Source: a virus (lineage: Duplodnaviria; Heunggongvirae; Uroviricota; Caudoviricetes). From it: a DNA stretch of 43,691 nt. The position numbers were made by a program, and so were the translations under genes. A model generated the notes under the pieces. The model ran no database searches and was not told the origin of the DNA. It saw only the letters and a program-made list of their open reading frames with translations. The stretch lies in IMG/VR virus record IMGVR_UViG_2645727945_000025, positions 1 to 43,691 of that record. The stretch is one strand, 5' to 3'. This document shows, one piece after another, positions 1,445 through 42,361 of this stretch (positions within the stretch are counted from its first letter, which is position 1; each line of letters starts with the position of its first letter).

Positions 1445-1462
1445 TTTAAATCAATAAGTTAC
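1399..1462. repeat. attL core: 64-bp direct repeat (tRNA 3' half plus 18 bp), identical to 41138-41201
   Basis: Exact 64-bp identity between the two positions; flanking sequence diverges on both sides. Confidence 0.85.
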
Positions 1463-2619
1463 CTCACATTTAAGTAAATCACGTTCTCCTCTTGTGCCGT
1501 ATTTGTGCCATTGCGACTTATAATTGCATCGATTTTGCTCGCGTGCTCGGTGAGATGCCCGGCTGAAAGGTGGGCGTATCTTTGAACCATTTCGAGAGTT
1601 TCCCATCCTCCCATCTCTTTAAGTGCAAGAAGAGAGACTCCGGACTGAACCAGCCAGCTTGCCCAGGTGTGTCTCAGGTCATGGAATCGGAAGTTGCTAA
1701 TGCCTGCCCGCTTTAACGCTCCCTTCCATGCTTTGTTGCTATCGGTTCTCATCTTCCTTACCGCAGCTGTTTTTGTTCCGTCGCTTCGGTAGGCAGGTTT
1801 GGTGTGGACAAATACCCATCTCTTATGGAGCCCCTGCTGTTTTCTTAATATCTGGCATGCGGTTTCGTTAAGAGGAACTCCGATCGCATTGCCAGCTTTT
1901 GTTTCATCAGGGTGCATCCATGCCATTTTCTTATCCAGATCGACCTGTGACCACTCAAGGTCTGTAACGTTGGAACGGCGAAGGCCTGTCGTGATTGCAA
2001 ACATGACTACAGGGAAGAAATGAGGAGCAATTTCTGCAAACAGGCGCTTCGATTCCTCCTCTGTAAGCCATCTAATGCGTCCATTCTTAACGCGTGGTGT
2101 TGATATTTTGGGCGCCCTGTCAAGCCATCCCCATTCAACAGCCATATTGAGAATAGCGCGAAGTATTGCCAGATGCCGCGTCTTCGTTCCTTTGCTTGCC
2201 AGCTTTGGTTTATACTCCGGCACTGGCTTGCCAAGCCGCAAACACCTGTCCCGGCTCATTTCCCAGTTCAGGCGATGGCGGCGGTTTTCCATCCCGTCTA
2301 CCGCCTCCATTATTTTTTCTGTTGTTATGTCTGAGAGAATGGTTTCTCTGAAGTGCAACATCCAGAACGATATAATGCTCTTGTCATCATCAATGGACTT
2401 CTTATCCGATTTCTCACGAAGCCACCGTATGCAGGCTTCCTTGAATAGCTTTTTCGGTGATTCCCCGAGATTTTTTACTCTCCACGCTTCTGCTTTCAGA
2501 CGATCGTGAAGTTCTTGCGCTTGCCTTTTGTCCGATGTTTCAAGAGAGCGTCTAACTCTTGATCCATCTGGCGCGACGAAATCACAGTGCCACGTGCCAC
2601 CGCGTAGTTTGATTGACAT
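1459..2619 (-). CDS. int: Tyrosine integrase (P22/lambda family), 386 aa
   Basis: C-terminal catalytic motifs (HDLRHT...W, ...MVQRYAHL); stop codon lies inside the att core next to the tRNA. Confidence 0.95.
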   Translation of the reverse strand: MSIKLRGGTWHCDFVAPDGSRVRRSLETSDKRQAQELHDRLKAEAWRVKNLGESPKKLFKEACIRWLREKSDKKSIDDDKSIISFWMLHFRETILSDITTEKIMEAVDGMENRRHRLNWEMSRDRCLRLGKPVPEYKPKLASKGTKTRHLAILRAILNMAVEWGWLDRAPKISTPRVKNGRIRWLTEEESKRLFAEIAPHFFPVVMFAITTGLRRSNVTDLEWSQVDLDKKMAWMHPDETKAGNAIGVPLNETACQILRKQQGLHKRWVFVHTKPAYRSDGTKTAAVRKMRTDSNKAWKGALKRAGISNFRFHDLRHTWASWLVQSGVSLLALKEMGGWETLEMVQRYAHLSAGHLTEHASKIDAIISRNGTNTAQEENVIYLNVR

Positions 2620-5231: not shown

Positions 5232-5743
5232 GCCGCGTTTCCTTCTTTCTTATTAACAATTACACCGTCATATATTTCATTAAGGTGCCCTCTCAACTCC
5301 ATGCGCCTTAATGCAGATAACATGTAATCGCATTCAACCTGCTTATTTCCAGTAAATGGCTTATCGTCAGGATTACCCCAACAGCAATTACCCTTGGGCC
5401 ACCCATGTACTTTCCGTACTCTTCCGTTAACAACGTGAAGTAATCCCCAGCCAGGTGGTAAATCCTCAACTGAAATAATTCCCGGCTCACTAATAAAGAA
5501 TCGCCAGTCGCCCATTCCAAGAGACGGATTTTTACGAAAACGCTTTTTTCTATCTGCCAACAAGTCAGCACGAGAACATTTCGCCTCTATCAGGCATGAT
5601 GCTGAATTTCTGAATCCCATAGCATCTGGCTGTTCTCCGGTACTGGTTACAGCTATAAAGCGGTCATGAAAACAAACCTTGAACCCGTTGCGCTTAAGGA
5701 ACTTGTACGCAATCTGACAGAGTTCGCGGTGTGTTAACGCCAT
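5228..5743 (-). CDS. Hypothetical protein with PD-(D/E)xK-like motif (PD...EAK), 171 aa
   Basis: Track ORF 5228-5815; start at Met25 with AGGAG RBS; near-identical paralog at 42890-43405 in prophage 2. Confidence 0.55.
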   Translation of the reverse strand: MALTHRELCQIAYKFLKRNGFKVCFHDRFIAVTSTGEQPDAMGFRNSASCLIEAKCSRADLLADRKKRFRKNPSLGMGDWRFFISEPGIISVEDLPPGWGLLHVVNGRVRKVHGWPKGNCCWGNPDDKPFTGNKQVECDYMLSALRRMELRGHLNEIYDGVIVNKKEGNAA

Positions 5744-7045: not shown

Positions 7046-7473
7046 TGGTTGCCTCCTTTGCGAAGCTCAGCGGCGAAGGCTACTGCGTGATCATGATGTT
7101 CAAGTGTGTATGCGCACTCAGCAAACATCTCCACGCCCTGTGCCCGTACATCAGCCAGGAAAGCATCGGTGGCTGGGGTGTCTGATTGCAGAGACTTTGC
7201 GCGATAGTCATTCCACCCTCTTGCATACATGGGATTAACTTGCACTCCATCTTTTACACAATATGCCTGCCCTCCACGGTTGATAACCTTGATTTCGTCC
7301 ATAGCGCCAGACTTCATCCCCGCATTCTCCGCTGCCAGCGCCGCGCACTTGGCCTCCGCTTCAGCAAATTTACGCACCAGATATTCAGCGTTTGTTTCGT
7401 TAACCTTTAAATCTCGTGGGATGCATTTACCTTTCAGAAATCCATCCATCTCAATTAGTGACATTTGTTTCAT
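7042..7473 (-). CDS. Hypothetical early protein (143 aa from Met7)
   Basis: Track ORF 7042-7491; ATGA overlap with the upstream small ORF. Confidence 0.5.
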
Positions 7474-7634
7474 TTCTTCCAACTCCGCCACATTGCATTC
7501 AGATATTTGTTTTGATTCACTGATGGAAAAGAATTTCTCTTAAGCAATTCCTCTCTCGATGGCATTGGCTTTACGCGTTGGCGAATAATCATTTCTGCCG
7601 GAAGAATGCCGGGATTGTATGAAAGTCCTCTCAT
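7470..7634 (-). CDS. Possible small ORF (54 aa), translationally coupled
   Basis: ATG overlaps stop of 7631-7921 gene (ATGA) and its stop overlaps the next start; below track threshold. Confidence 0.25.
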
Positions 7635-7921
7635 GATTTACTCTCCATGAACTGGTCAACAGCCATGCTAAGTGATACACCTAAAGTCTCGATATGCTGC
7701 TGAATATCCTGTAGCGTCTGCGCCTGAGATAACAGGATTTCACGGTTGCATAACTCTTTAACCAGATGCTCAAACTTGCTGTAATAACCGATACGACTTA
7801 GTGTTTCTTTCCCTGCATTCTCGCCTTCTTTGATAATTCCTCTTTCATTAAGAATCAGGTCGTGTTTGGTTCCGGTAATAACGTATTTTCCGAGGTCGAT
7901 GTTTAGCTTCATTGTTTTCAT
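7631..7921 (-). CDS. Hypothetical early protein (96 aa)
   Basis: Track ORF 7631-8074; likely start at Met52 with GAGGA RBS just after the upstream stop. Confidence 0.5.
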
Positions 7922-7931
7922 TGTTAATTCC

Positions 7932-8228
7932 TCAGTCATTACTGATAGCGCCATAGCGTGAGCGGTAATTACGCAGGCGCGGGTCGATATATTCAGGGAA
8001 GTGGGTATATGTTGCTTTGCGGAACGGTCGGATTGATGTCTGGTAAATTCGCTCGCGTTCTTCTTTCTCTGCAAGCCATATACAATGGCGAAATTCCTTT
8101 TCCTCTTTCGTTTCCTGCGGTAGAGACATTATTCGATCGTAGTTTTTTCTGAATTTATCCAGCACTTCCGATACGGAATTGCCGGAACAGCGGCGTGGGT
8201 CATCCGCACCATACAGAGGCGCTGGCAT
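7932..8228 (-). CDS. Hypothetical early protein (98 aa)
   Basis: Track ORF. Confidence 0.45.
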   Translation of the reverse strand: MPAPLYGADDPRRCSGNSVSEVLDKFRKNYDRIMSLPQETKEEKEFRHCIWLAEKEERERIYQTSIRPFRKATYTHFPEYIDPRLRNYRSRYGAISND

Positions 8229-8251
8229 AATGGAATCCTTATGTTGCTACT

Positions 8252-8635
8252 TTAGAAGGGAATTGAATCGTCGTATTCAGGATGATTTTGATGATTGCTA
8301 CTTTGCTGCTGTTGGCTGTTTCCTGAAGTTGCAAATCCAATCTTTGCATTCAGTAATTCAAGAGTGATTGATTGACCATTTTGCCCCTGATAAACATCAA
8401 CCCTGATGTTTTCTCCGGTAATTTCTACAATGCCACCTTCAACAAGAACACTACGGTAGTAATCCGCTTGCGCTCCCGGCTTGGCAAATACAACGGCGCT
8501 GTAGTTTGTCCATTCTTTCTTTTTTGTCTGGCGATCGTAATACTGAACGCCAGCACGGATGTTGAATCCGATATTTTCCCCGGCCTGAAACTCTCTTGCG
8601 GGCTTGTTTAGTCTTACAGTAATCGAATGTGCCAT
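8252..8635 (-). CDS. Putative single-strand DNA-binding protein (127 aa) with acidic C-terminal tail ...EYDDSIPF
   Basis: Track ORF 8252-8725; start at Met31 overlapping erf stop; C-terminal DDxIPF tail is an SSB hallmark. Confidence 0.5.
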   Translation of the reverse strand: MAHSITVRLNKPAREFQAGENIGFNIRAGVQYYDRQTKKKEWTNYSAVVFAKPGAQADYYRSVLVEGGIVEITGENIRVDVYQGQNGQSITLELLNAKIGFATSGNSQQQQSSNHQNHPEYDDSIPF

Positions 8636-9240
8636 TAAGCAGCCGCTCCTTCTAATTCGTCTCGTCTGATGTTGTAAACGTCCTGCGCTTTGTGCTGCTC
8701 CGGTGTGCCTTCGAGCATCTTCCACGCTTTGGCGAACGCCTGTTTAAGCTCTTCCACGGTGTTTTTCTGCAATGCTGCGTCAGTGAATGCTTTTAGAACC
8801 TGTTCAGGTGTAGGTGATGGTTTTGATTGCTTTGCTGCTGCGTTCTGCTGATGTTTATGCTCGTCTGTATCTGCATCTTTCGCATCATCAATGCCGAATA
8901 AACCATTGAGGCAATACTTGCGTGCATAAGAGCTTGTAGCTCCCGTAACTTGTGCAGAATCCATTCCTTTCTTGCTTTCTTCCTCTCGTGCAAGAGCGGT
9001 TGCCGTATGACTGTTTTCGCCATCGGTAATAGTTGCCGTGGCTTTCACGTAATACCGATCACCAATCAACACAACTTCATCGCTGATTGATAAAAACAGG
9101 CCATTCAGTAACGGCTTAACGCCTTCAAGAATGTCTTCGCAGCTTCTGTATTTATATTTACCGAATGAGTTGTACTGATTCTTTGGCGCGTTCAGATTCT
9201 CCTGAATGGCTGCCAGCCTTGCATAAAATTCTTTGCTCAT
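8635..9240 (-). CDS. erf: ERF-family single-strand annealing recombinase
   Basis: Track ORF 8635-9270 (start at Met11); sequence recalled as close to P22 Erf (MSKEFYARLA...NQYNSFGKYKYRSCEDILEG). Confidence 0.7.
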   Translation of the reverse strand: MSKEFYARLAAIQENLNAPKNQYNSFGKYKYRSCEDILEGVKPLLNGLFLSISDEVVLIGDRYYVKATATITDGENSHTATALAREEESKKGMDSAQVTGATSSYARKYCLNGLFGIDDAKDADTDEHKHQQNAAAKQSKPSPTPEQVLKAFTDAALQKNTVEELKQAFAKAWKMLEGTPEQHKAQDVYNIRRDELEGAAA

Positions 9241-9250
9241 ATGATTGCTC

Positions 9251-9421
9251 TCAGAATGGACATGGCCCAAGGAAATAACGCTGATTTAATACTTCAGTCT
9301 TTGCCGCATTTAAAAATACGCGAACACCTTCACGATCTCCCTTCTGGCGATACATTAACGCCTGCTGCGTGTACATGCGTCTCTGTAACTTACTCTCCTT
9401 CACTGTGGTTGCAAGTGACAT
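9251..9421 (-). CDS. Small ORF (56 aa) in the kil/arf position
   Basis: ATG with strong AAGGAGATATTC RBS; below track size threshold. Confidence 0.35.
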   Translation of the reverse strand: MSLATTVKESKLQRRMYTQQALMYRQKGDREGVRVFLNAAKTEVLNQRYFLGPCPF

Positions 9422-9633
9422 GAATATCTCCTTCGTTACCGATTAATTCTTTCATCTGACGAATGAATTCTTCGTCTGACCAGTTATCTGTAAAGCTCAT
9501 TTCCTGCGATACCACGGAAGGTTGATAGCTGATTTCATCGCTTTATTTGCTTCAAGCCACATTTTGGAATCACCAATAAATCGGGCTATTACTGCTTTGT
9601 TTTGTGCAGCACGAAGCATCTGGTGATTGATGG

Positions 9634-12060: not shown

Positions 12061-12777
12061 TCAAACCAGCCTTAGTTTTGTCTCAATTGCAACGCCTATA
12101 ATCTTGCAGTTTCCATTGATTGGCACGAGAGGCCATGCAGGATTAAGTCCCTTGAGGTATTTATTTCCGCCGTCGATTATCAGCTTCTTGAATGTTGCTT
12201 CGTTAGAGTCAGAAAGTTTTGCTATGACCAAGCTGCCGTTGATCGCCTCCCTTCCGGTATCGAAAAGAACGAATGTTCCCTCTGGAATGCTTAACCCAAC
12301 CGGTGCCGTCATTGAATCACCTTCCACTTTAAGCCAGAACGCATTACCTTGAATATGCGCGTCAGACTCAAGCCAAACATCTATGTCTTTAATGGTGTAT
12401 GGTTCGCATGCTTCACACCACGAGCCAGCCTGGATACTGCTTAACACCGGATACCTCTTTCCTGCTCTGTATTCCCCTGCATACCTTACGTTGGCATCGC
12501 TCTTAAGGCTTTCTGCCTGTTCTGCAACCTTGGCAGCAATTGACTGGCTAAAATCAGCAATTGAGACTTGCAACAATCGTGCAAAACCAGATGCAACCTC
12601 AACGTTTAGCGCGTTTCTGCCATTAAGATAATGCCCTACCGCTCCTTGGGTGATACCCAGTTCATCAGCGATTGAGTATTGGGTTATTCCCAATTCTTTC
12701 TTTTTTGACTCATACAAAGCCTTAAGACGCTTAGCGTCTTCGAGCTGTTCTGTCGTCAGTGATTTTTTATTTTCCAT
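12061..12777 (-). CDS. cI: CI repressor (HTH plus S24 LexA-like autocleavage domain), 238 aa
   Basis: Recalled similarity to lambda CI throughout (LTTEQLEDAKRLKALYE..., FWLKVEGDSMTAP..., C-terminal S24 domain). Confidence 0.9.
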   Translation of the reverse strand: MENKKSLTTEQLEDAKRLKALYESKKKELGITQYSIADELGITQGAVGHYLNGRNALNVEVASGFARLLQVSIADFSQSIAAKVAEQAESLKSDANVRYAGEYRAGKRYPVLSSIQAGSWCEACEPYTIKDIDVWLESDAHIQGNAFWLKVEGDSMTAPVGLSIPEGTFVLFDTGREAINGSLVIAKLSDSNEATFKKLIIDGGNKYLKGLNPAWPLVPINGNCKIIGVAIETKLRLV

Positions 12778-13499: not shown

Positions 13500-14144
13500 A
13501 TGACATACGAAAATGACAAATTCCAGGTTCTGAAGAGCATGAAGGTGCCAGATGATTTTAAATCAAATGGCTTTGTTTATGTGCTTTCGAATGAGTGCAT
13601 GCCAGGAATTTATAAGATTGGGATGACTAAGCATTCACCAGAAGTTAGGGCTAAAGAAATTTCAGCCTCTACTGGCGTTCCTAAGCCATTTAAGGTGATA
13701 GCAGCCTTTCATTCAAATAATCCCGCATCAGATGAAAAACTCATTCATAAAGCCTTTGCAAAAGAGAGGCTTAGTGATAATCGAGAGTTTTTCAAGCTTG
13801 AAGATAATGATCTTTCTGAATCTCTAAATGAAATAAGGGCGCTGGTTGGCCCTGAAAGAAATGGCGAGACGGCAGAATACGCAATTTACGACTCATTCAT
13901 TTCTTTTCGCCATGAAAATGAGCTTGATCTTAATGAGGAGCTTATAGAGCAAGGTCTGGGTAGTGTAGTTGGTCATCTTCCTGCGGTGAAAAATTTCCTT
14001 ATTCGCGCCGGAATTGCTTACGCGAAGCAACTGATAAGCAAATATAACTCATCGATAGTTATTAATACAGATGGCAGTGTGGTGATGGTTAAGTCTCTTG
14101 AAGCCCAATGCTTTGATGCGGAGGTTGGAAATGAGCCTGGCTGA
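13500..14144 (+). CDS. T5orf172/GIY-YIG-superfamily domain protein (214 aa), moron between cII and O
   Basis: N-terminal motif GFVYVLSN...GIYKIGMT...R...F.V...E.LIHKAF...REFF; strong AGGAG RBS; AT-rich. Confidence 0.6.
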   Translation: MTYENDKFQVLKSMKVPDDFKSNGFVYVLSNECMPGIYKIGMTKHSPEVRAKEISASTGVPKPFKVIAAFHSNNPASDEKLIHKAFAKERLSDNREFFKLEDNDLSESLNEIRALVGPERNGETAEYAIYDSFISFRHENELDLNEELIEQGLGSVVGHLPAVKNFLIRAGIAYAKQLISKYNSSIVINTDGSVVMVKSLEAQCFDAEVGNEPG

Positions 14145-14973
14145 AGTATTTTACCTGCCGAAGAGTGAACCTGTTGAACAGGAGCGAAGAGTGGCTGATA
14201 TCGATGATGGTTACACCAGATTCGCTAACGAGCTGCTGGAAGCTATCGCAAGTGCCGATTTAACCGCTCGCCAGTTGAAAGTTATGCTGGCCTACGTCCG
14301 GAAAACATATGGATTCAATAAGAAAACAGATCGAATAGCCGATGAGCAAATTGCTCAGTTAACAGGACTGTCAAGGCAGAATGTTAACAAGGCTAAAAAA
14401 GAACTGATTTCAATGAATTGCCTGTTTATGGATGGAAATCAAATCGGTGTAAACAGTGAGGTATCTGCGTGGCAATTCAGCAAGTGTCTCCAAGTTAGCA
14501 ACTTTGTCTCGAAGTTAGAGACAAAAAATGTCTCCAAATTAGAGACACTCAATGTCTCGAAGTTAGAGACACACAAAAGACATTCTTTAAAGACAAAAGA
14601 AAATATTAATAACCCCCCTATATCCCCCAAAAAAGTTTCTCAGAAGTTCGACCCGCTAGAAACAGAGTTGCCTGATTGGTTATCAGCAGAAACATGGTTG
14701 TCGTGGGTTACCTATCGCAAGGAGATAGGTAAGTCGATCAAGTCTAAGCAAAGTGTCACTCAGGCTATCAACGTTCTAAGCAGAAGTCTGGAGAAGGGAT
14801 ATACACCTGAAGAAATTATAAACCAGAGCATCGCCAGTGGTTGGCAGGGGATTTTTGAGCCCAAGACTTCAAAGGGGAAATCTCAACCGAGGCCGCAGCA
14901 TCGAGCTATGCAGGAAAACTTTGCCACCAAAGATTACGGACAAACTGAAATGCCTTCATGGGCGCAGGAGTGA
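14131..14973 (+). CDS. O: Replication initiator O (lambda O-like N-terminus)
   Basis: N-terminal similarity to lambda O (DDGY.R..N.LLEA...ADLT.RQ.KV.LA..RKTYG.NK..DRI); ori iterons inside the gene; start at Met12 (alternative 14098). Confidence 0.8.
   Translation: MSLAEVFYLPKSEPVEQERRVADIDDGYTRFANELLEAIASADLTARQLKVMLAYVRKTYGFNKKTDRIADEQIAQLTGLSRQNVNKAKKELISMNCLFMDGNQIGVNSEVSAWQFSKCLQVSNFVSKLETKNVSKLETLNVSKLETHKRHSLKTKENINNPPISPKKVSQKFDPLETELPDWLSAETWLSWVTYRKEIGKSIKSKQSVTQAINVLSRSLEKGYTPEEIINQSIASGWQGIFEPKTSKGKSQPRPQHRAMQENFATKDYGQTEMPSWAQE
14484..14615. repeat. Origin of replication: four ~19-bp iterons (TGTCTC-N7-GAGACA) plus AT-rich tract
   Basis: Tandem copies at about 14484-14502, 14504-14523, 14528-14548, 14550-14572, then an A/T-rich stretch. 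Confidence 0.65.
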
Positions 14974-14975
14974 AC

Positions 14976-15821
14976 ATGACGCTGGATGAAAAGATCTTCC
15001 AACTGGAGAAAAAACTTGCAGAATTGAGTTCTCCGCCAATTGCTATCGAGCATACAGCTGTAGAAATTGGCACTGGCATCTGTGAAAAACATGGTGAGTT
15101 TGAGCAGCGTAACCGTTACTCGACTGGGCCAATTAAGTTTGCCTCAAGACCTAGCGAATGCCCGGAATGCATGAGAGATGAGCTTATTCGGCTACAGGCA
15201 GAGAAGATTAAAATCGACGAGGAATCACGTAAGCGCAATGTCGAGTTTCTGTTGAATAATCTTGATATTCCTGAACGATTCAAGGGTTGCACACTACAGA
15301 ACTACGAGCCAGTCAACGACGATGCAAAGAGAGTGCTCAGGGTGTGTCAGGCATACGCCAGCAAATGGCCTGAGAGGTTACAGAAAGGCGGTGGGCTGGT
15401 TATGTGTGGAAAGCCTGGTACTGGAAAGAATCATCTTGCACTGGCTATCGCCTGGCACGCAATTACGGAACATCAAAGCTCAGCTATTTTCACAACGGCG
15501 CTGAAAATTGCCAGAGAATATAAATCAACATGGTCGAAAAACTCCACCCGCACTGAGGATGAAGTGATCCGACAGTTCACTAAACCTGACCTGCTAATTA
15601 TCGATGAGGTTGGTGTGCAGTTTGGAAGCGAGGCGGAAAAGATGATCATGTTCGAAATCATCAACACCCGCTACGAGCGTATGAAGCCAACAATCCTGAT
15701 TAGCAACCAGAGCAAAGATGAACTGTCTGCATTCATTGGTGAGCGTGTTATTGACAGGATGAATGATGGCGGCGGATGCACCCTTGCGTTTACATGGGAT
15801 AGTTACAGGAGCAGATCGTGA
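14976..15821 (+). CDS. DnaC-like helicase loader (IstB-type AAA+ ATPase)
   Basis: Walker A GKPGTGKNHLA and Walker B LLIIDEVG; GGAG RBS; follows O. Confidence 0.8.
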   Translation: MTLDEKIFQLEKKLAELSSPPIAIEHTAVEIGTGICEKHGEFEQRNRYSTGPIKFASRPSECPECMRDELIRLQAEKIKIDEESRKRNVEFLLNNLDIPERFKGCTLQNYEPVNDDAKRVLRVCQAYASKWPERLQKGGGLVMCGKPGTGKNHLALAIAWHAITEHQSSAIFTTALKIAREYKSTWSKNSTRTEDEVIRQFTKPDLLIIDEVGVQFGSEAEKMIMFEIINTRYERMKPTILISNQSKDELSAFIGERVIDRMNDGGGCTLAFTWDSYRSRS

Positions 15822-16133: not shown

Positions 16134-16164
16134 AGGCCTGCTGGTAATCGCAGGCCTTTTTATT
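16134..16164 (+). terminator. tR2-like intrinsic terminator preceding the nin region
   Basis: AGGCCTGC-TGGTAATC-GCAGGCCT hairpin followed by TTTTTATTT. Confidence 0.6.
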
Positions 16165-16181
16165 TGGGGGAGAGGGAAGTC

Positions 16182-16622
16182 ATGAAAAAACTAACCTTTG
16201 AAATTCGATCTCCAGCACATCAGCAAAACGCTATTCACGCAGTACAGCAAATTCTTCCAGACCCAACCAAACCAATCGTAGTAACCATTCAGGAACGCAA
16301 CCGCAGCTTAGACCAAAACCGAAAGCTTTGGGCTTGCCTTGGTGACGTCTCTCGTCAGGTTGAATGGCATGGTCGCTGGCTGGATGCAGAAAGTTGGAAG
16401 TGTGTGTTTACCGCAGCATTAAAGCAGCAGGACGTTGTTCCTAACCTTGCCGGGAATGGCTTTGTGGTAATAGGCCAGTCAACCAGCAGGATGCGTGTAA
16501 GCGAATTTGCGGAGCTATTAGAGCTTATACAGGCATTCGGTACAGAGCGTGGCGTTAAGTGGTCAGACGAAGCGCGACTGGCTCTCGAATGGAAAGCGCG
16601 ATGGGGAGATCGGGCAGCATGA
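16182..16622 (+). CDS. ninB: NinB recombination protein
   Basis: Recalled near-identity to lambda NinB (MKKLTFEIRSPAHQQNAIHAVQQILPDP...). Confidence 0.85.
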   Translation: MKKLTFEIRSPAHQQNAIHAVQQILPDPTKPIVVTIQERNRSLDQNRKLWACLGDVSRQVEWHGRWLDAESWKCVFTAALKQQDVVPNLAGNGFVVIGQSTSRMRVSEFAELLELIQAFGTERGVKWSDEARLALEWKARWGDRAA

Positions 16623-26414: not shown

Positions 26415-27326
26415 ATGGACCAAACCACCGACATTCAGGCTTCTGAAGAATTAACCCTGCCCGGCAATCATGCAGCGGCATCTGCTGATGGCTTAGTTGT
26501 CGATAATGCCAACGACAACGCAGGTCAGGAAGAAGGCTTCGAGATTGTCCTGAAAGACGATGAGAAACCAAAACAAGACCCGGCAACTAATGCTGAATTT
26601 GCCCGTCGCCGCATCGAACGCAAACGCCAGCGTGAGCTTGAGCAGCAGATGGAAGCGGTTAAGCGTGGAGAGTTGCCGGAGCACCTGCGGGTGAACCCTG
26701 AGTTACCAAAACAACCAGACCCTAACGATTATCTTTCCGAAGATGCACTGGCTAAGTACGACTATGACCAGAGCCGCGCACTGGCTGCCTTCCAGCAGGC
26801 AAACAGTGAATGGCAGATCAAGGCTATGGACGCACGAAGCCAGGCTGTCGCCGAGCAGGGTCGCAAAACTCAGGAGTTCACCCAGCAATCAGCGCAATAC
26901 GTCGAGGCAGCCCGTAAGCACTACGACGCAGCGGAAAAGCTCAATATCCCTGACTATCAGGAGAAAGAGGATGCATTCATGCAACTGGTGCCGCCAGCAG
27001 TCGGTGCCGACATCATGCGCCTCTTCCCGGAGAAATCCGCTGCTCTCATGTATCACCTTGGTGCTAATCCTGAGAAAACACGCCAGTTGCTGGCGATGGA
27101 CGGGCAATCCGCGCTGATTGAACTCACTCGACTGTCAGAACGTTTAACTCTCAAGCCTCGAGCCAAGCCTGTTTCAGAAGCCCCGTTACCTGATGAACCC
27201 ATTCAGGGACACGCTGTTGCTGCAAATATCTCTGCGATTGAAAAGCAGATGGAAGCGGCAGCAAACAAAGGGGATGTAGAGACATACCGCAAGCTCAAGG
27301 CGCAACTGAATAAAGGAATTCGATAA
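26415..27326 (+). CDS. Scaffolding protein (P22 gp8-like, 303 aa)
   Basis: Recalled high similarity to P22 gp8. Confidence 0.9.
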
Positions 27327-28621
27327 TGGCATTAAATGAAGGTCAACTGGTCACGTATGCTCTGGATGAAATCATCGAAACCGTCCAGAACCTGACGCCA
27401 ATGGCGTCTAAAGTGACAAAATACACCCCTCCGGCAGAATCCATGCAGCGTTCAAGCAACACCGTGTGGATGCCTGTTGAGCAGGAAGCGCCAACCCAGA
27501 CTGGCTGGGATTTAACTGGCAACGCAACCGGGATTCTGGAACTCTCCGTGAAATGCAACATGGGCGATCCGGATAACGATTTCTTCGAGCTTCGTGCAGA
27601 TGACCTGCGTGATGAGCGTTCTTACCGTCGCCGCATCCAGGCATCCGCCAAAAAACTGGCGAATAACATTGAGTCAGCGATTGCCAAACAGGCAACTGAA
27701 ATGGGCTCGCTTGTTGTTCACGATACCCGCGCAATTGGTCCATCTACTGGCCTGTCTGGCTGGGATTTTGTGTCTGATGCAGAGCGCCTGATGTTCTCCC
27801 GTGAGCTAAACCGCGATATGGGCATCAGTTACTTCCTGAACCCTGACGATTACCGCAAAGCAGGCCGCAACCTGGTAGATGGTGACATCTTTGGGCGCGT
27901 TCCTGAAGAAGCGTATCGCAACGGTACTATTCAGCGTCAGATTGCTGGCTTTGATGAAATTCTTCGCTCACCGAAACTTCCGGCAGTTACCAAGTCAACC
28001 GCTACTGGTGTAACTGTTTCTGGTGCGCAGAAGTTTAAGCCGCAGGCATACACCCTTGATACCGATGGTAACAAAGAGAACGTCGACAACCGTGTTGCAA
28101 CGGTGACCGTATCCTCCACCACCGGATTTAAGCGCGGCGACAAAATCAGCTTCACTGGTGTGAAATTCCTGTCTCAGATGGCGAAGAACGTGCTGACTGA
28201 TGACGCGACTTTCTCAATCACCCGTGTGATCGATGGTACTCACATCGAAATCACGCCGAAGCCGATTGCGCTTGATGACGCTTCACTGACAAAAGAAGAG
28301 AAGGCTTACGCTAACGTAAATACTTCTCTTGCTAATAACACTCCGGTAAACGTTCTGAACGTGGCAACAACCACCGCTAACGTGTTCTGGGCTGATGACT
28401 CAATCCGTCTGCTTTCTCAGCCGATCCCGGTAACCCATGAACTGTTTGCTGGCATGAAAACGTCTTCCTTCAGCATTCCAGGTATTGGTGTTAACGGCAT
28501 CTTCGCAACGCAGGGTGATATCAACACTCTGTCTGGTAAGTGCCGTATTGCTGTGTGGTATTCAGCATGTGCTGTACGACCAGAGGCAATTGGTGTTGGT
28601 CTGCCTAACCAGACCGCGTGA
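27326..28621 (+). CDS. Major coat protein (P22 gp5-like, 431 aa)
   Basis: Recalled high similarity to P22 coat protein. Confidence 0.95.
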
Positions 28622-38749: not shown

Positions 38750-40885
38750 ATGACAGACATTACAGCCAATGTGATCGTATCGATGCCTTCGCAACTCTTC
38801 ACTATGGCTCGTTCTTTTAAAGCCGTAGCCAATGGAAAAATTTATATCGGTAAAATTGACACTGACCCGGTAAATCCTGAAAACCAGATTCAGGTTTATG
38901 TGGAGAACGAAGACGGCTCTCACGTTCCTGTATCGCAGCCAATCATCATTAACGCTGCCGGATATCCTGTATATAACGGACAGATTGCCAAATTCGTAAC
39001 TGTGCAAGGCCATTCTATGGCTGTTTATGATGCATATGGGGCGCAGCAGTTCTATTTTCCTAATGTGCTGAAGTATGACCCTGATCAACTCAGGTCTGAA
39101 TTATCAGCTCAGGGTGGAGATAAGATTGTTGGTAGTTCGTATGGCGGAACCGTCTATACAGACTACAGTCCATCAGAATTCATTAAGTTTGCAGAATTCA
39201 CCGTCCCAACAAGTCTTTCAAACAATAGACAAGCCGTTAAATATATAGACGGATTTTGGTATGTATGGAATGGAACATTTCCATACAATACTGGAACGTC
39301 AAATCCTGGTAATAATGACACATGGAAATGCGTTGGACTTCTAAATGGTTTTTCGGTTAATGACGCTCAGAACTTTGGCTTCACAGGGGGTATGGACGAT
39401 GCACTTCCAGCGCTAAATGCGATGATTAGAAGCCCATTTTTTGAAATGTTTTTCCCTATTGGAAGTGAAATTAATATTTCGTCTGACTGGAATCTCCGTT
39501 CAAATTTATATATAAACTTTCACGGTTCAACAATCAACTGGATGGGTGCTGCTTTCTCAAGTTCTGATGTTGTGAATGGTAGCGAGATGGCTATTTTAAA
39601 TACGCCAAATTTTTCAGGTGGAACTACAGGGGCACTCGTAAACCTTCATCTGTCAAACTTAAATATTAAAGCAAATGATTACGCAATAGGCATAAGTGCA
39701 AGGAATATTACAAATTTCTCTATAGAGAATGTTTATGTAGAGAAAGCGCAACGTCAAGGAATTAATGTATCTAATTGCCAGAATGGATGTATTAATCAAA
39801 TAACTCTGAAAGATTGCTCTCCTTTATCTGATAAAGGATTTACTAGTTCACAGCTAGAGAGTTGGGGCGATGGATTGATTGTATGGTATGGAAGCACTAA
39901 CGTATCCATTGATAACATTAGAGTTGAATCAGGAAATAATTCACGAGGAGGTCGCTGCGGTATCTGTATCGATGGTTATGCTCCATCCGGAAAGCCAGAT
40001 TCACGCAATATTTCTGTAAATAACGCTTATGTTTACGGTTATGACAGGCCTATACATACCGAACTATGCGGTATTGTTACCGTAACTAACAGTGTTTTCG
40101 AATACAACTCAGGCTCTGACACGCATCACTTTTTGCAATGTGGTGTCGTCGTGTGGAATGTCCTTGAAACCACTACTTTTATCAACTGCACGTTTCGCAC
40201 AGATATGCGGTTTATGAAAAACTCAGGCGCTAAGGCGAAATTCATAAAATGTAATGTGTACAAAACATCAAGCACTGAGCCTATGTTTATAACAGGTACA
40301 GAGCAAACAGGTATAGTTAATTTTGATGACTGCTTACTTTCTCATGCCGGTGGTGAATGGGGGGCTTGGAACTGTTCATTAAGTTTTAATGGTTGCACGA
40401 TATCATCTGATTCTGCTGGATCTGTTATTAATTTTGGTAGCGAATCCATACCAAAAAATATCACTATTGTTAATTCACATCTGTTAAACACATCAATATC
40501 AGCACTGTTCGCACCTGGATTTACTGAAATTCATCTTTCTAATTCAACAATAAATGGAGATGTTAATTGCGGACCTTCTGCCAGACTTCGTGTAAATTCA
40601 TGCGATATATATGGAGTTGTTACATGCAATAGTGTAATGAGATACAACGGACAGAAACCAAATAAATTAATTTATTTGCAAAATGCAGACCAGCAATACA
40701 ATGGCATGTGGCTAGGAACGCGCCCACCACTAGGTGCTAGACCAGATGGATCTGGAGATTGGTTGAGGGGTGATATAGTTTTTAATCTCGACGCCATAGA
40801 GTCAACACCATTCCAATGGTATTGCGTAACCCCAGGATCGCCTGGAAGATGGGCTGTATCTGGAACTCTTGGCGCAGCTTCTTAA
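38750..40885 (+). CDS. Tailspike (P22 gp9-family head-binding N-terminus plus divergent receptor-binding domain), 711 aa
   Basis: N-terminal ~115 aa recalled as the conserved P22/HK620/Sf6 head-binding domain; remainder AT-rich with repetitive beta-strand-like segments. Confidence 0.9.
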
Positions 40886-41137: not shown

Positions 41138-41201
41138 ATTCGTAATGCGAAGGTCGTAGGTTCGACTCCTATTATCGGCACCATTTAAATCAATAAGTTA
41201 C
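41138..41201. repeat. attR of prophage 1 and attL of prophage 2: second 64-bp core copy with tRNA 3' fragment
   Basis: Identical to 1399-1462; the 5' tRNA half is not reconstituted here (no GCCGAT acceptor strand upstream). Confidence 0.85.
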
Positions 41202-42361
41202 ACATCATTAGTACCTTCCTTATTTTTTGACTGGGACAAATTTGGGACCGATGGGTTCAGAATCGAGTCTATTTGCCGTGCGTGTTCGGTAAGGTGATTA
41301 GGCGCGAGGTGAGCATATCGACGAACCATTTCGATAGACTCCCAGCCACCCATTTCCTGTAACACTGACAACGGGACTCCGGCTTGAACCAGCCAACTTG
41401 CCCAGGTGTGTCTCAAGTCGTGAAATCTGAAATCATCAATACCAGCTCGTCTCAGCGCCGCTTTCCAGGCTGTGTTTGCGTCATACCGCATCTTCCTTAC
41501 TGTTGGCGCTTTCGTTCCGTCTGGTTTGGTACAGCTTTCCTTGTACACAAATACCCAACGGTGATGATTCCCGATTTGTTTTTTCAAAACGCGACATGCA
41601 GTATCATTCAGCGCAACGCCGATTGCGCGGTTTGATTTACTCTCTTCCGGGTTTATCCATGCCACCCGGCGCTGCATATCTATTTGTTGCCATTCAAGGT
41701 TGATGATGTTCGAGCGTCTTAAACCTGTTGCCAGTGCAAATTCAACAACAGACTTTAATGGCTCCGGACATTCATCAATCAGCCTTTGTGCTTCATGGGG
41801 CTCCAGCCAGCGGATCCGTTTATTCTTTGGTTGAGGCACTTTAATAATTGGTGCCTTATCCAGCATTTTCCATTCACGCTCTGCGGCTCTTAGTAGGGCC
41901 TTTATAAATGAAAGATGCGTAGCCTTCGTTGCAACGGACGCTGGTTTTGGCGTGTATTCTGGAACAGGTTTCCCTTTTTTTCTGCATGCTTCTGCCCTGA
42001 GTTTCCAGTTTTCCTCATGACGCCGGTTCGTCATTTTCTGCATTGCTGAATAAATTTTTGATTCAGTAATGTCTCTTAGTTGCATTCCTGCGAAATGTTG
42101 AAGCCAGAATCCGATCCGGCTTTTGTCATCGTCCAGTGATTTTTTATGTGCTTTCTCTTCAAGCCACCTGACACACGCTTCCTCGAACGTTATATCAGGT
42201 ATTTCACCAAGTTTGCTGACCCGCCATGCTTCAGCCTTTAGCTTGTCATGGAGTTCTGTCGCCTGCCTTTTGTCCTTTGTTCCAAGAGACTGTTTAAATC
42301 TTTTACCGTTCGGCAATGTGAAACTGGCGTACCATATTTCACCTCTGCGGAAGAGTGACAT
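41198..42361 (-). CDS. int: Tyrosine integrase of prophage 2 (P22 Int-like, 387 aa)
   Basis: Recalled close similarity to P22 Int ([33 protein letters not shown]...); stop inside the att core. Confidence 0.95.

Follow-up and report, generated by a model that had tools for sequence, protein, structure and literature searches.

A diverged OB-fold protein with an SSB-like C-terminal tip, encoded beside erf in a P22-like Escherichia coli prophage, is a probable SSB of the phage recombination module

The window, i.e. the whole stretch of DNA that was analyzed (43,691 nt), is a P22-like E. coli prophage. Its landmarks outside of the region under study are as follows.

1–1254: host gene of the aldehyde dehydrogenase family
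1459–2619, minus strand: integrase
12061–12777, minus strand: cI-like repressor
14098–14973: O replication protein
14958–15821: DnaC-like loader
16164–16622, plus strand: NinB/Orf (PF05772, E-value = 1e-54)
38750–40885: tailspike with a P22-type head-binding domain
41198–42361, minus strand: second tyrosine integrase, 387 aa (PF00589, E-value = 3e-48)

The second integrase gene is located directly past the tailspike gene and is present besides the integrase gene at 1459–2619. This extra integrase suggests that a second integrated element abuts the prophage.

The leftward early operon is on the minus strand and includes ral, cIII, kil, two small open reading frames, erf, an open reading frame of 127 amino acids and abc2. 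The erf gene and the 127 aa open reading frame are therein part of the recombination module of the early-left (PL) operon. The features of this region are listed below.

7470–7634: DUF2737-like gene
~7631–7921, minus strand: extra open reading frame of ~96 aa, matching phrog_154 “replication initiation protein” (E-value = 9.5e-33)
7932–8228, minus strand: abc2, 98 aa, modifier (anti-RecBCD) of host RecBCD and third gene of the module, assigned by its similarity to P22 Abc2
8252–8635, minus strand: divergent SSB gene of the HK022/HK97 gp40 family (“SSB-1b”), 127 aa plus stop codon, assigned from HK022 gp40, phrog_44 and the AlphaFold2 model
8255–8278, minus strand: C-terminal tip EYDDSIPF, counterpart of E. 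coli SSB DFDDDIPF
8279–8320, minus strand: short disordered linker rich in Q, S and N, aa positions 106–119 (pLDDT below 50 from residue 107)
8321–8635, minus strand: predicted OB-fold ssDNA-binding core, aa positions 1–105, with Y32, W42, F50 and Y82 (AlphaFold2, hhalign and conservation)
8633–8637, minus strand: TAATG, overlap of the erf stop codon and the SSB start codon with one base in common
8646–8651, minus strand: AAGGAG, Shine-Dalgarno-like, inside the 3′ end of erf and 10 nt before the ATG (read off the sequence)
8635–8779, minus strand: “HK-type” C-terminal domain of Erf, approximately the last 48 aa, a block without DNA homology to P22
8635–9240, minus strand: erf, single-strand annealing protein of the Erf family, 201 aa (PF04404, phrog_155, P22 Erf)
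9251–9421, minus strand: small open reading frame of 56 aa upstream of erf, matching phrog_1723 “recombinase”
9390–9515, minus strand: small open reading frame of 41 aa upstream of erf, matching phrog_2123 “recombinase”

The Erf sequence matches Pfam PF04404 at 151.6 bits, which is above the gathering cut-off of 25 (E-value = 2e-44), and phrog_155 with an E-value of 1.6e-57. Its identity to P22 Erf is 75%. A sequence search of the PDB gave no solved structure related to Erf. The Abc2 sequence is 93% identical to P22 Abc2 and matches phrog_656 (E-value = 7.8e-57). The function of P22 Abc2 is modification of RecBCD (PMC5928155).

The two small open reading frames upstream of erf overlap each other and occupy the position of P22 arf. 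At such lengths (56 and 41 aa), the name “recombinase” was probably carried over to both by annotation and does not reflect a function that was tested. The ~96 aa open reading frame is flanked by abc2 and the DUF2737-like gene. Of the best-matching phages, HK446 is the only one with coverage here, and a related open reading frame is present at positions 5294–5566 of another locus (L104). The label “replication initiation protein” looks doubtful for a protein as short as ~96 aa.

The first-pass annotation had described an open reading frame of 127 aa that lies downstream of erf, overlaps its stop codon and ends in EYDDSIPF, and this description is correct. The ATG (8635–8633) and the TAA of erf (8637–8635) have one base in common, and the overlap is the type of arrangement that would couple translation of the 127 aa protein to that of erf. 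A one-base overlap or a direct abutment is also found in HK022 and in loci L086 and L104/L110.

The C-terminal sequence of the 127 aa protein is ...SGNSQQQQSSNHQNHPEYDDSIPF, the tail of which reads NHPEYDDSIPF. The protein is 100% identical to HK022 gp40, and its counterpart in HK97 is also gp40; gp35 of HK633 is annotated as “similar to Gp40 HK97”. It is referred to as gp40 below. In the HK022 record, annotated by the Hendrix lab, it is described as “hypothetical protein; likely analog of P22 Abc1”. Of 5426 complete E. coli genomes, 579 (~11%) have the gene, in up to four copies each. In these genomes the PGAP label is always “hypothetical protein”, next to an “ERF family protein”, and GenBank and RefSeq still give the name as hypothetical protein.

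Curated sequence models do not recognize gp40. A Pfam scan of the protein gave no match, including none to PF00436 or DUF669, and in an NCBIfam scan its score with TIGR00621 is 16.4 bits, i.e. below the cut-off of 53.95. Only 7 of 48 gp40 relatives match PF00436, all weakly, the best with an E-value of 0.0038. Both the protein and the family profile were searched against PDB sequences, with marginal SSB matches as the only result (E-values of 0.042 and 0.64). A profile search of 1.84 billion proteins gave 215 relatives as representatives of 50%-identity clusters. Since there are only 215 matches, the family is separate from the canonical SSBs at the sensitivity of HMMER, and by sequence it is a small family that stands apart.

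A match to an SSB profile is nevertheless found among the PHROGs. Residues 2–127 of gp40 match positions 89–228 of phrog_44 (“single strand DNA binding protein”) with an E-value of 1.8e-28, and E. coli SSB matches positions 82–228 of the same profile (E-value = 9e-60), a region that gp40 also matches. The E. coli SSB sequence used in the PHROG and hhalign comparisons is supported by its phrog_44 match.

An AlphaFold2 model of gp40 was built on a 48-sequence alignment and has a mean pLDDT of 84 and a pTM of 0.71. Residues 1–105 are modeled as a beta-barrel of the OB type with one helix, and pLDDT is mostly above 90 over residues 1–100. The predicted strands are at positions 3–8, 14–18, 21–34, 39–51, 69–74, 76–84, 87–95 and 98–103, and the helix is at 55–63. 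Residues 107–127 are predicted to be disordered, with pLDDT below 50. The best 50 Foldseek matches of the model in the PDB are all bacterial SSB, PriB or mitochondrial SSB, with E-values down to 3e-5, TM scores of 0.4–0.55 and identities of 7%–19%. Matches among the viral models of BFVD are, where named, nearly all SSBs. For the SSBs themselves the identity in the PDB alignments is 10%–19%, and together with the Pfam and TIGR00621 results this bears out the earlier remark that the sequence does not look like E. coli SSB.

The four residues of E. coli SSB that stack on ssDNA are W40, W54, F60 and W88. Alignment of the gp40 family profile with E. coli SSB by hhalign gives a probability of 88% over residues 32–94, and pairs Y32, W42, F50 and Y82 of gp40 with these four residues. 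The aromatic residues are conserved in the gp40 family: position 32 is Y in 47/48 sequences, position 42 is W in 47/48, position 50 is F in all 48, and position 82 is Y or F in all 48. An HHpred-type check for an OB fold had been proposed in the first-pass annotation. Since AlphaFold2, Foldseek and hhalign all give an OB/SSB fold, the outcome is positive, and gp40 is predicted to have a core of the SSB/PriB type.

The C-terminal tip EYDDSIPF of gp40 compares closely with DFDDDIPF of E. coli SSB. An ending of the form [IVLMP]-P-[FY] is found in 80 of 107 full-length close relatives of gp40; the final eight residues of these 80 include 2.2 acidic ones on average, and in 72 an aromatic residue is found 4–8 positions from the end. 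At the level of 50%-identity representatives, x-P-[FYW] is the ending of 64 of 120 full-length sequences, and IPF followed by one residue is found in a further ten or so. By comparison, the segment between barrel and tip, which is rich in Q, N, P and G, varies freely in length and sequence across the family. The tip is clearly under selection, and the suggestion that the tail is an SSB-like acidic tip is upheld by a P-aromatic ending kept in more relatives than chance would give. The architecture of gp40 as modeled, i.e. an OB core followed by a disordered linker and a docking tip, is that of the bacterial SSBs.

A subgroup from marine sources (L091 2455–3513; P0091, P0097, P0106 and P0117) has long tails that are rich in Q and finish with NF-x-QPQR, without the IPF. 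The genes of this subgroup are still found directly after ERF and a gene for a PolB-exo-like exonuclease.

The fold by itself would also be consistent with an OB-fold protein without ssDNA-binding activity, i.e. a PriB-like protein or an adaptor that binds proteins, with the terminal IPF being incidental. PriB structures do score near the SSBs in the Foldseek comparison, and the curated SSB models (Pfam and TIGR00621) are unmatched. However PriB has neither a disordered linker nor an acidic tip, while in gp40 the tip is kept throughout the family and the stacking aromatics are conserved as well. This explanation is therefore highly improbable. On the basis of the fold, the stacking residues, the tip and the substitution by a canonical SSB described below, gp40 very probably binds ssDNA; a homotetramer or dimer, as in bacterial-type SSBs, would be its putative state.

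The order erf–gp40–abc2 is found in all 80 close IMG/VR loci, two of which have an erf that is interrupted or cut at the contig end. These loci were found with the gp40 family alignment and cover only sequences that are 98%–100% identical; the more distant contexts come from contigs and annotated phage records. Relatives of 50%–62% identity in a Vibrio phage and in metagenome contigs have an Erf gene directly upstream. Vibrio phage 1.213.O has an exonuclease gene followed by ERF and a 50% identical gp40 relative, and two metagenomic phage contigs have an ERF gene ahead of the gp40 relative. In a Leminorella grimontii prophage (L086 2138–3417) a Sak4-like AAA_24 gene comes first, and its stop overlaps the start of a gp40-like SSB gene. 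The Leminorella protein is 51% identical to gp40 and ends in DFDDDIPF. Because of this overlap with a Sak4-like gene, the SSB-1b family is seen to pair with RecA-like as well as with Rad52-like annealing proteins. Altogether an Erf or Sak4-like neighbor is present in 5 of 7 more distant contexts, and no recombinase was found near the gp40 relative in the other two, those of a 28% identical Vibrio phage relative and of P0099.

The latter two contexts would fit a general replication SSB, i.e. an extra SSB for theta or rolling-circle replication of the phage that has no specific link to Erf. The fold and tip are of the type found in replicative SSBs, and such a tip could be a binding site for Pol III chi or PriA. 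However gp40 is in the PL recombination module, away from the O and DnaC-like genes (14098–15821), it is translationally coupled to erf, as far as can be judged from the overlap, and the genes of its relatives adjoin Erf or Sak4-like genes in the five contexts given above. A general replicative role is thus quite improbable. The conserved context across phages is the strongest functional evidence for the role of gp40, and taken with the coupling it makes it likely that gp40 works with Erf in the recombination module.

DNA homology to P22 is present at positions 8780–9240 (79% identity) and 7918–8231 (88.5% identity) but is absent over 8232–8779, as compared with positions 26927–27398 of the P22 locus (L003). 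The mosaic break falls inside erf at about codon 154. Because P22 homology is missing over 8232–8779, the C-terminal domain of Erf and the gene downstream of it represent an exchanged block. The first-pass annotation had placed the 127 aa open reading frame where P22 has its abc genes. This is correct with respect to abc1, which is replaced, but not with respect to abc2, which is still downstream at 7932–8228 and, as noted, highly similar to that of P22.

Relatives of P22 Erf were searched and the gene that follows erf was classified. After an HK-type Erf C-terminal domain, the next gene is gp40 in 70 loci and a PF00436 SSB in seven, and the P22-type domain is followed by Abc1 in all three loci in which it occurs. 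The SSBs in the seven loci are canonical, with chain lengths of 153–157 aa and a PF00436 E-value of 1e-40; one has the tip MDFDDDIPF and the others have close variants. The gene after the canonical SSB is an exonuclease or another open reading frame, and an Abc2-like gene follows. Since either protein follows the HK-type domain, a single slot is filled alternatively by gp40 or by a canonical SSB.

The slot of gp40 directly upstream of abc2 is that of P22 abc1, which is in keeping with the “likely analog of P22 Abc1” in the HK022 record and would suit a quite different function. Here gp40 would be a decoy or hub mimic whose host-like tip titrates or redirects the enzymes that interact with SSB (ExoI, RecJ, RecQ, RecO, PriA and Pol III chi); it would protect phage ssDNA ends and substitute functionally for Abc1 beside Abc2, and coating of ssDNA would be secondary. 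The near identity of the tip to that of host SSB and the unusually short linker also favor a decoy. The invariant aromatic and basic residues at the DNA-binding positions of SSB however point to selection for DNA binding, and a canonical SSB replaces gp40 in the identical slot. In addition Abc1 is unrelated to gp40 and helix-turn-helix-like, and the function of Abc1 is itself unknown (PMC12315714). The decoy function is accordingly considered unlikely.

The HK-type Erf C-terminal domain has been seen only before SSBs that bear a tip, of the gp40 or canonical type, among the loci examined. Further, the Erf of the Vibrio phage that is paired with a gp40-like SSB has the C-terminal motif LKAAFGDAWKKL...VYDLR, which is closer to the HK type than to that of P22. 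These observations suggest that the Erf C-terminal domain is functionally connected with the phage SSB, but they carry little weight; the loci are closely related and the co-occurrence could equally be plain linkage. A more specific proposal is that the two are a co-inherited recognition pair, in which the tip loads Erf selectively on ssDNA coated with phage SSB and also competes with host SSB for partners. If this were true, gp40 would be both a loader of Erf and a functional replacement of Abc1. The proposal is speculative and its chances are small.

The reading that best accommodates the observations is that gp40 is a highly diverged OB-fold SSB of the bacterial type, which probably serves as the dedicated SSB of the prophage recombination module and has a tip for loading of Erf or host partners. 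It would be made from the PL operon, with its translation coupled to that of erf. Single strands exposed by Abc2-modified RecBCD at the ends of phage DNA, or at replication forks, would be coated by gp40, and its disordered tail would end in a replica of the docking tip found on host SSB (aromatic-D-D-x-I-P-F). By means of this tip Erf, and probably also SSB-binding proteins of the host, could load onto the SSB-coated ssDNA, and the loaded Erf would then anneal complementary strands. There is about an even chance that Erf, host partners of SSB or both are brought to coated ssDNA by the tip; for Erf this is by analogy with the Sak4/SSB pair of HK620 and with RecT/SSB. The original proposal of a phage SSB that recruits partners for Erf-mediated recombination thus gains in silico support from the fold, the aromatic residues, the tip and the gene context.

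The prophage also encodes NinB/Orf (16164–16622), one more candidate for interaction with the gp40 tip. NinB/Orf is a recombination mediator that acts on SSB-coated ssDNA (PMC4118853).

With respect to annotation, many lambdoid phages have gp40, as do ~11% of complete E. coli genomes, and the labels “hypothetical protein” and “Abc1 analog” can be replaced by recombination-module SSB. Annealing proteins require an SSB tail that is compatible with them. For recombineering, Erf and gp40 are a compact natural pair that could be tried where Erf alone performs poorly. The slot itself, with three unrelated or barely related types of SSB and the non-SSB Abc1, is a natural experiment on what annealing proteins need from an SSB.

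Recombination modules of 325 lambdoid phages have been surveyed (PMC12315714, Genome Research 2025). In that work the structure of HK97 gp40 predicted by AF3 is found to resemble bacterial SSBs and the protein is named “SSB-1b”. One functional type of Rec module consists of an anti-RecBCD protein, an SSB and an annealing protein with no nuclease; HK75 is its prototype and it is found in 27 phages (PMC12315714). The HK97/HK022 SSB-1b is the same protein as that described here, in the same erf–gp40–abc2 module, which is of the HK75-prototype functional type. Because HK97 gp40 has been given this name, gp40 is already known as a predicted SSB. The published assignment is made from the AF3 fold only, and there is no difference in the gp40 sequence. 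Neither the C-terminal tip nor the stacking aromatics are mentioned in the main text of PMC12315714, nor is the alternation with canonical SSB after one type of Erf C-terminal domain, and within the literature searched the terms “SSB-1b”, “HK97 gp40” and “HK022 gp40” are used by that paper alone. The additions made here are incremental, i.e. the host-like conserved tip, the aromatic residues at SSB stacking positions, the pairing in distant phages with recombinases of both the Erf and the Sak4 type, the alternation of gp40 with canonical SSB after one type of Erf C-terminal domain and the mosaic break in erf.

P22 Abc1 is like gp40 in position only: its gene is flanked by erf and abc2 and overlaps the stop codon of the former. 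The Abc1 sequence matches helix-turn-helix and transcription-regulator PHROGs and displays no OB-fold signal and no IPF tip. Homology between the two was rejected, as BLASTP gave no alignment at E-values up to 100. An identity as PriB was also rejected; the fold is similar, but gp40 has the linker and the conserved IPF tip and is encoded in a phage recombination module.

The canonical SSBs (PF00436), i.e. E. coli SSB and the “SSB-1” of ES18/Sf6, are like gp40 in having an OB fold, four stacking aromatics, a disordered linker and the ending aromatic-D-D-x-I-P-F. In ES18/epsilon34-like modules a canonical SSB occupies the slot that gp40 fills. The two differ in that their identity is ~10%–19%, gp40 falls below the Pfam and TIGRFAM cut-offs, and its chain length is 127 aa with a linker of ~14 aa, compared with 153–178 aa for the canonical proteins.

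The SSB of phage HK620 (HkaK, DUF669, “SSB-2”) is encoded in the slot that corresponds to that of gp40, with the annealing-protein gene on one side and abc2 on the other. This protein, too, was at first mislabeled as Abc1. It has an acidic tip of the PPF type (NDYPPF), which is comparable to the acidic IPF tip of gp40. Homology of the two proteins was nevertheless rejected (hhalign probability of 0.4%, phrog_743 as opposed to phrog_44, and no DUF669 match for gp40). Deletion of the last six residues of HK620 SSB reduces Sak4 recombineering tenfold and abolishes binding of Sak4 to SSB-coated ssDNA (PMC5928155). Similarly, RecT proteins recognize the last seven residues of SSB (bioRxiv 10.1101/2020.04.14.041095). 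HkaK has been tested biochemically, whereas gp40 is known here from its sequence and predicted fold. The current understanding is unchanged by the present analysis. The mechanism proposed for gp40 is one already shown for HK620; the partner is the RecA-like Sak4 in the case of HK620 SSB, and would be Erf in the case of gp40.
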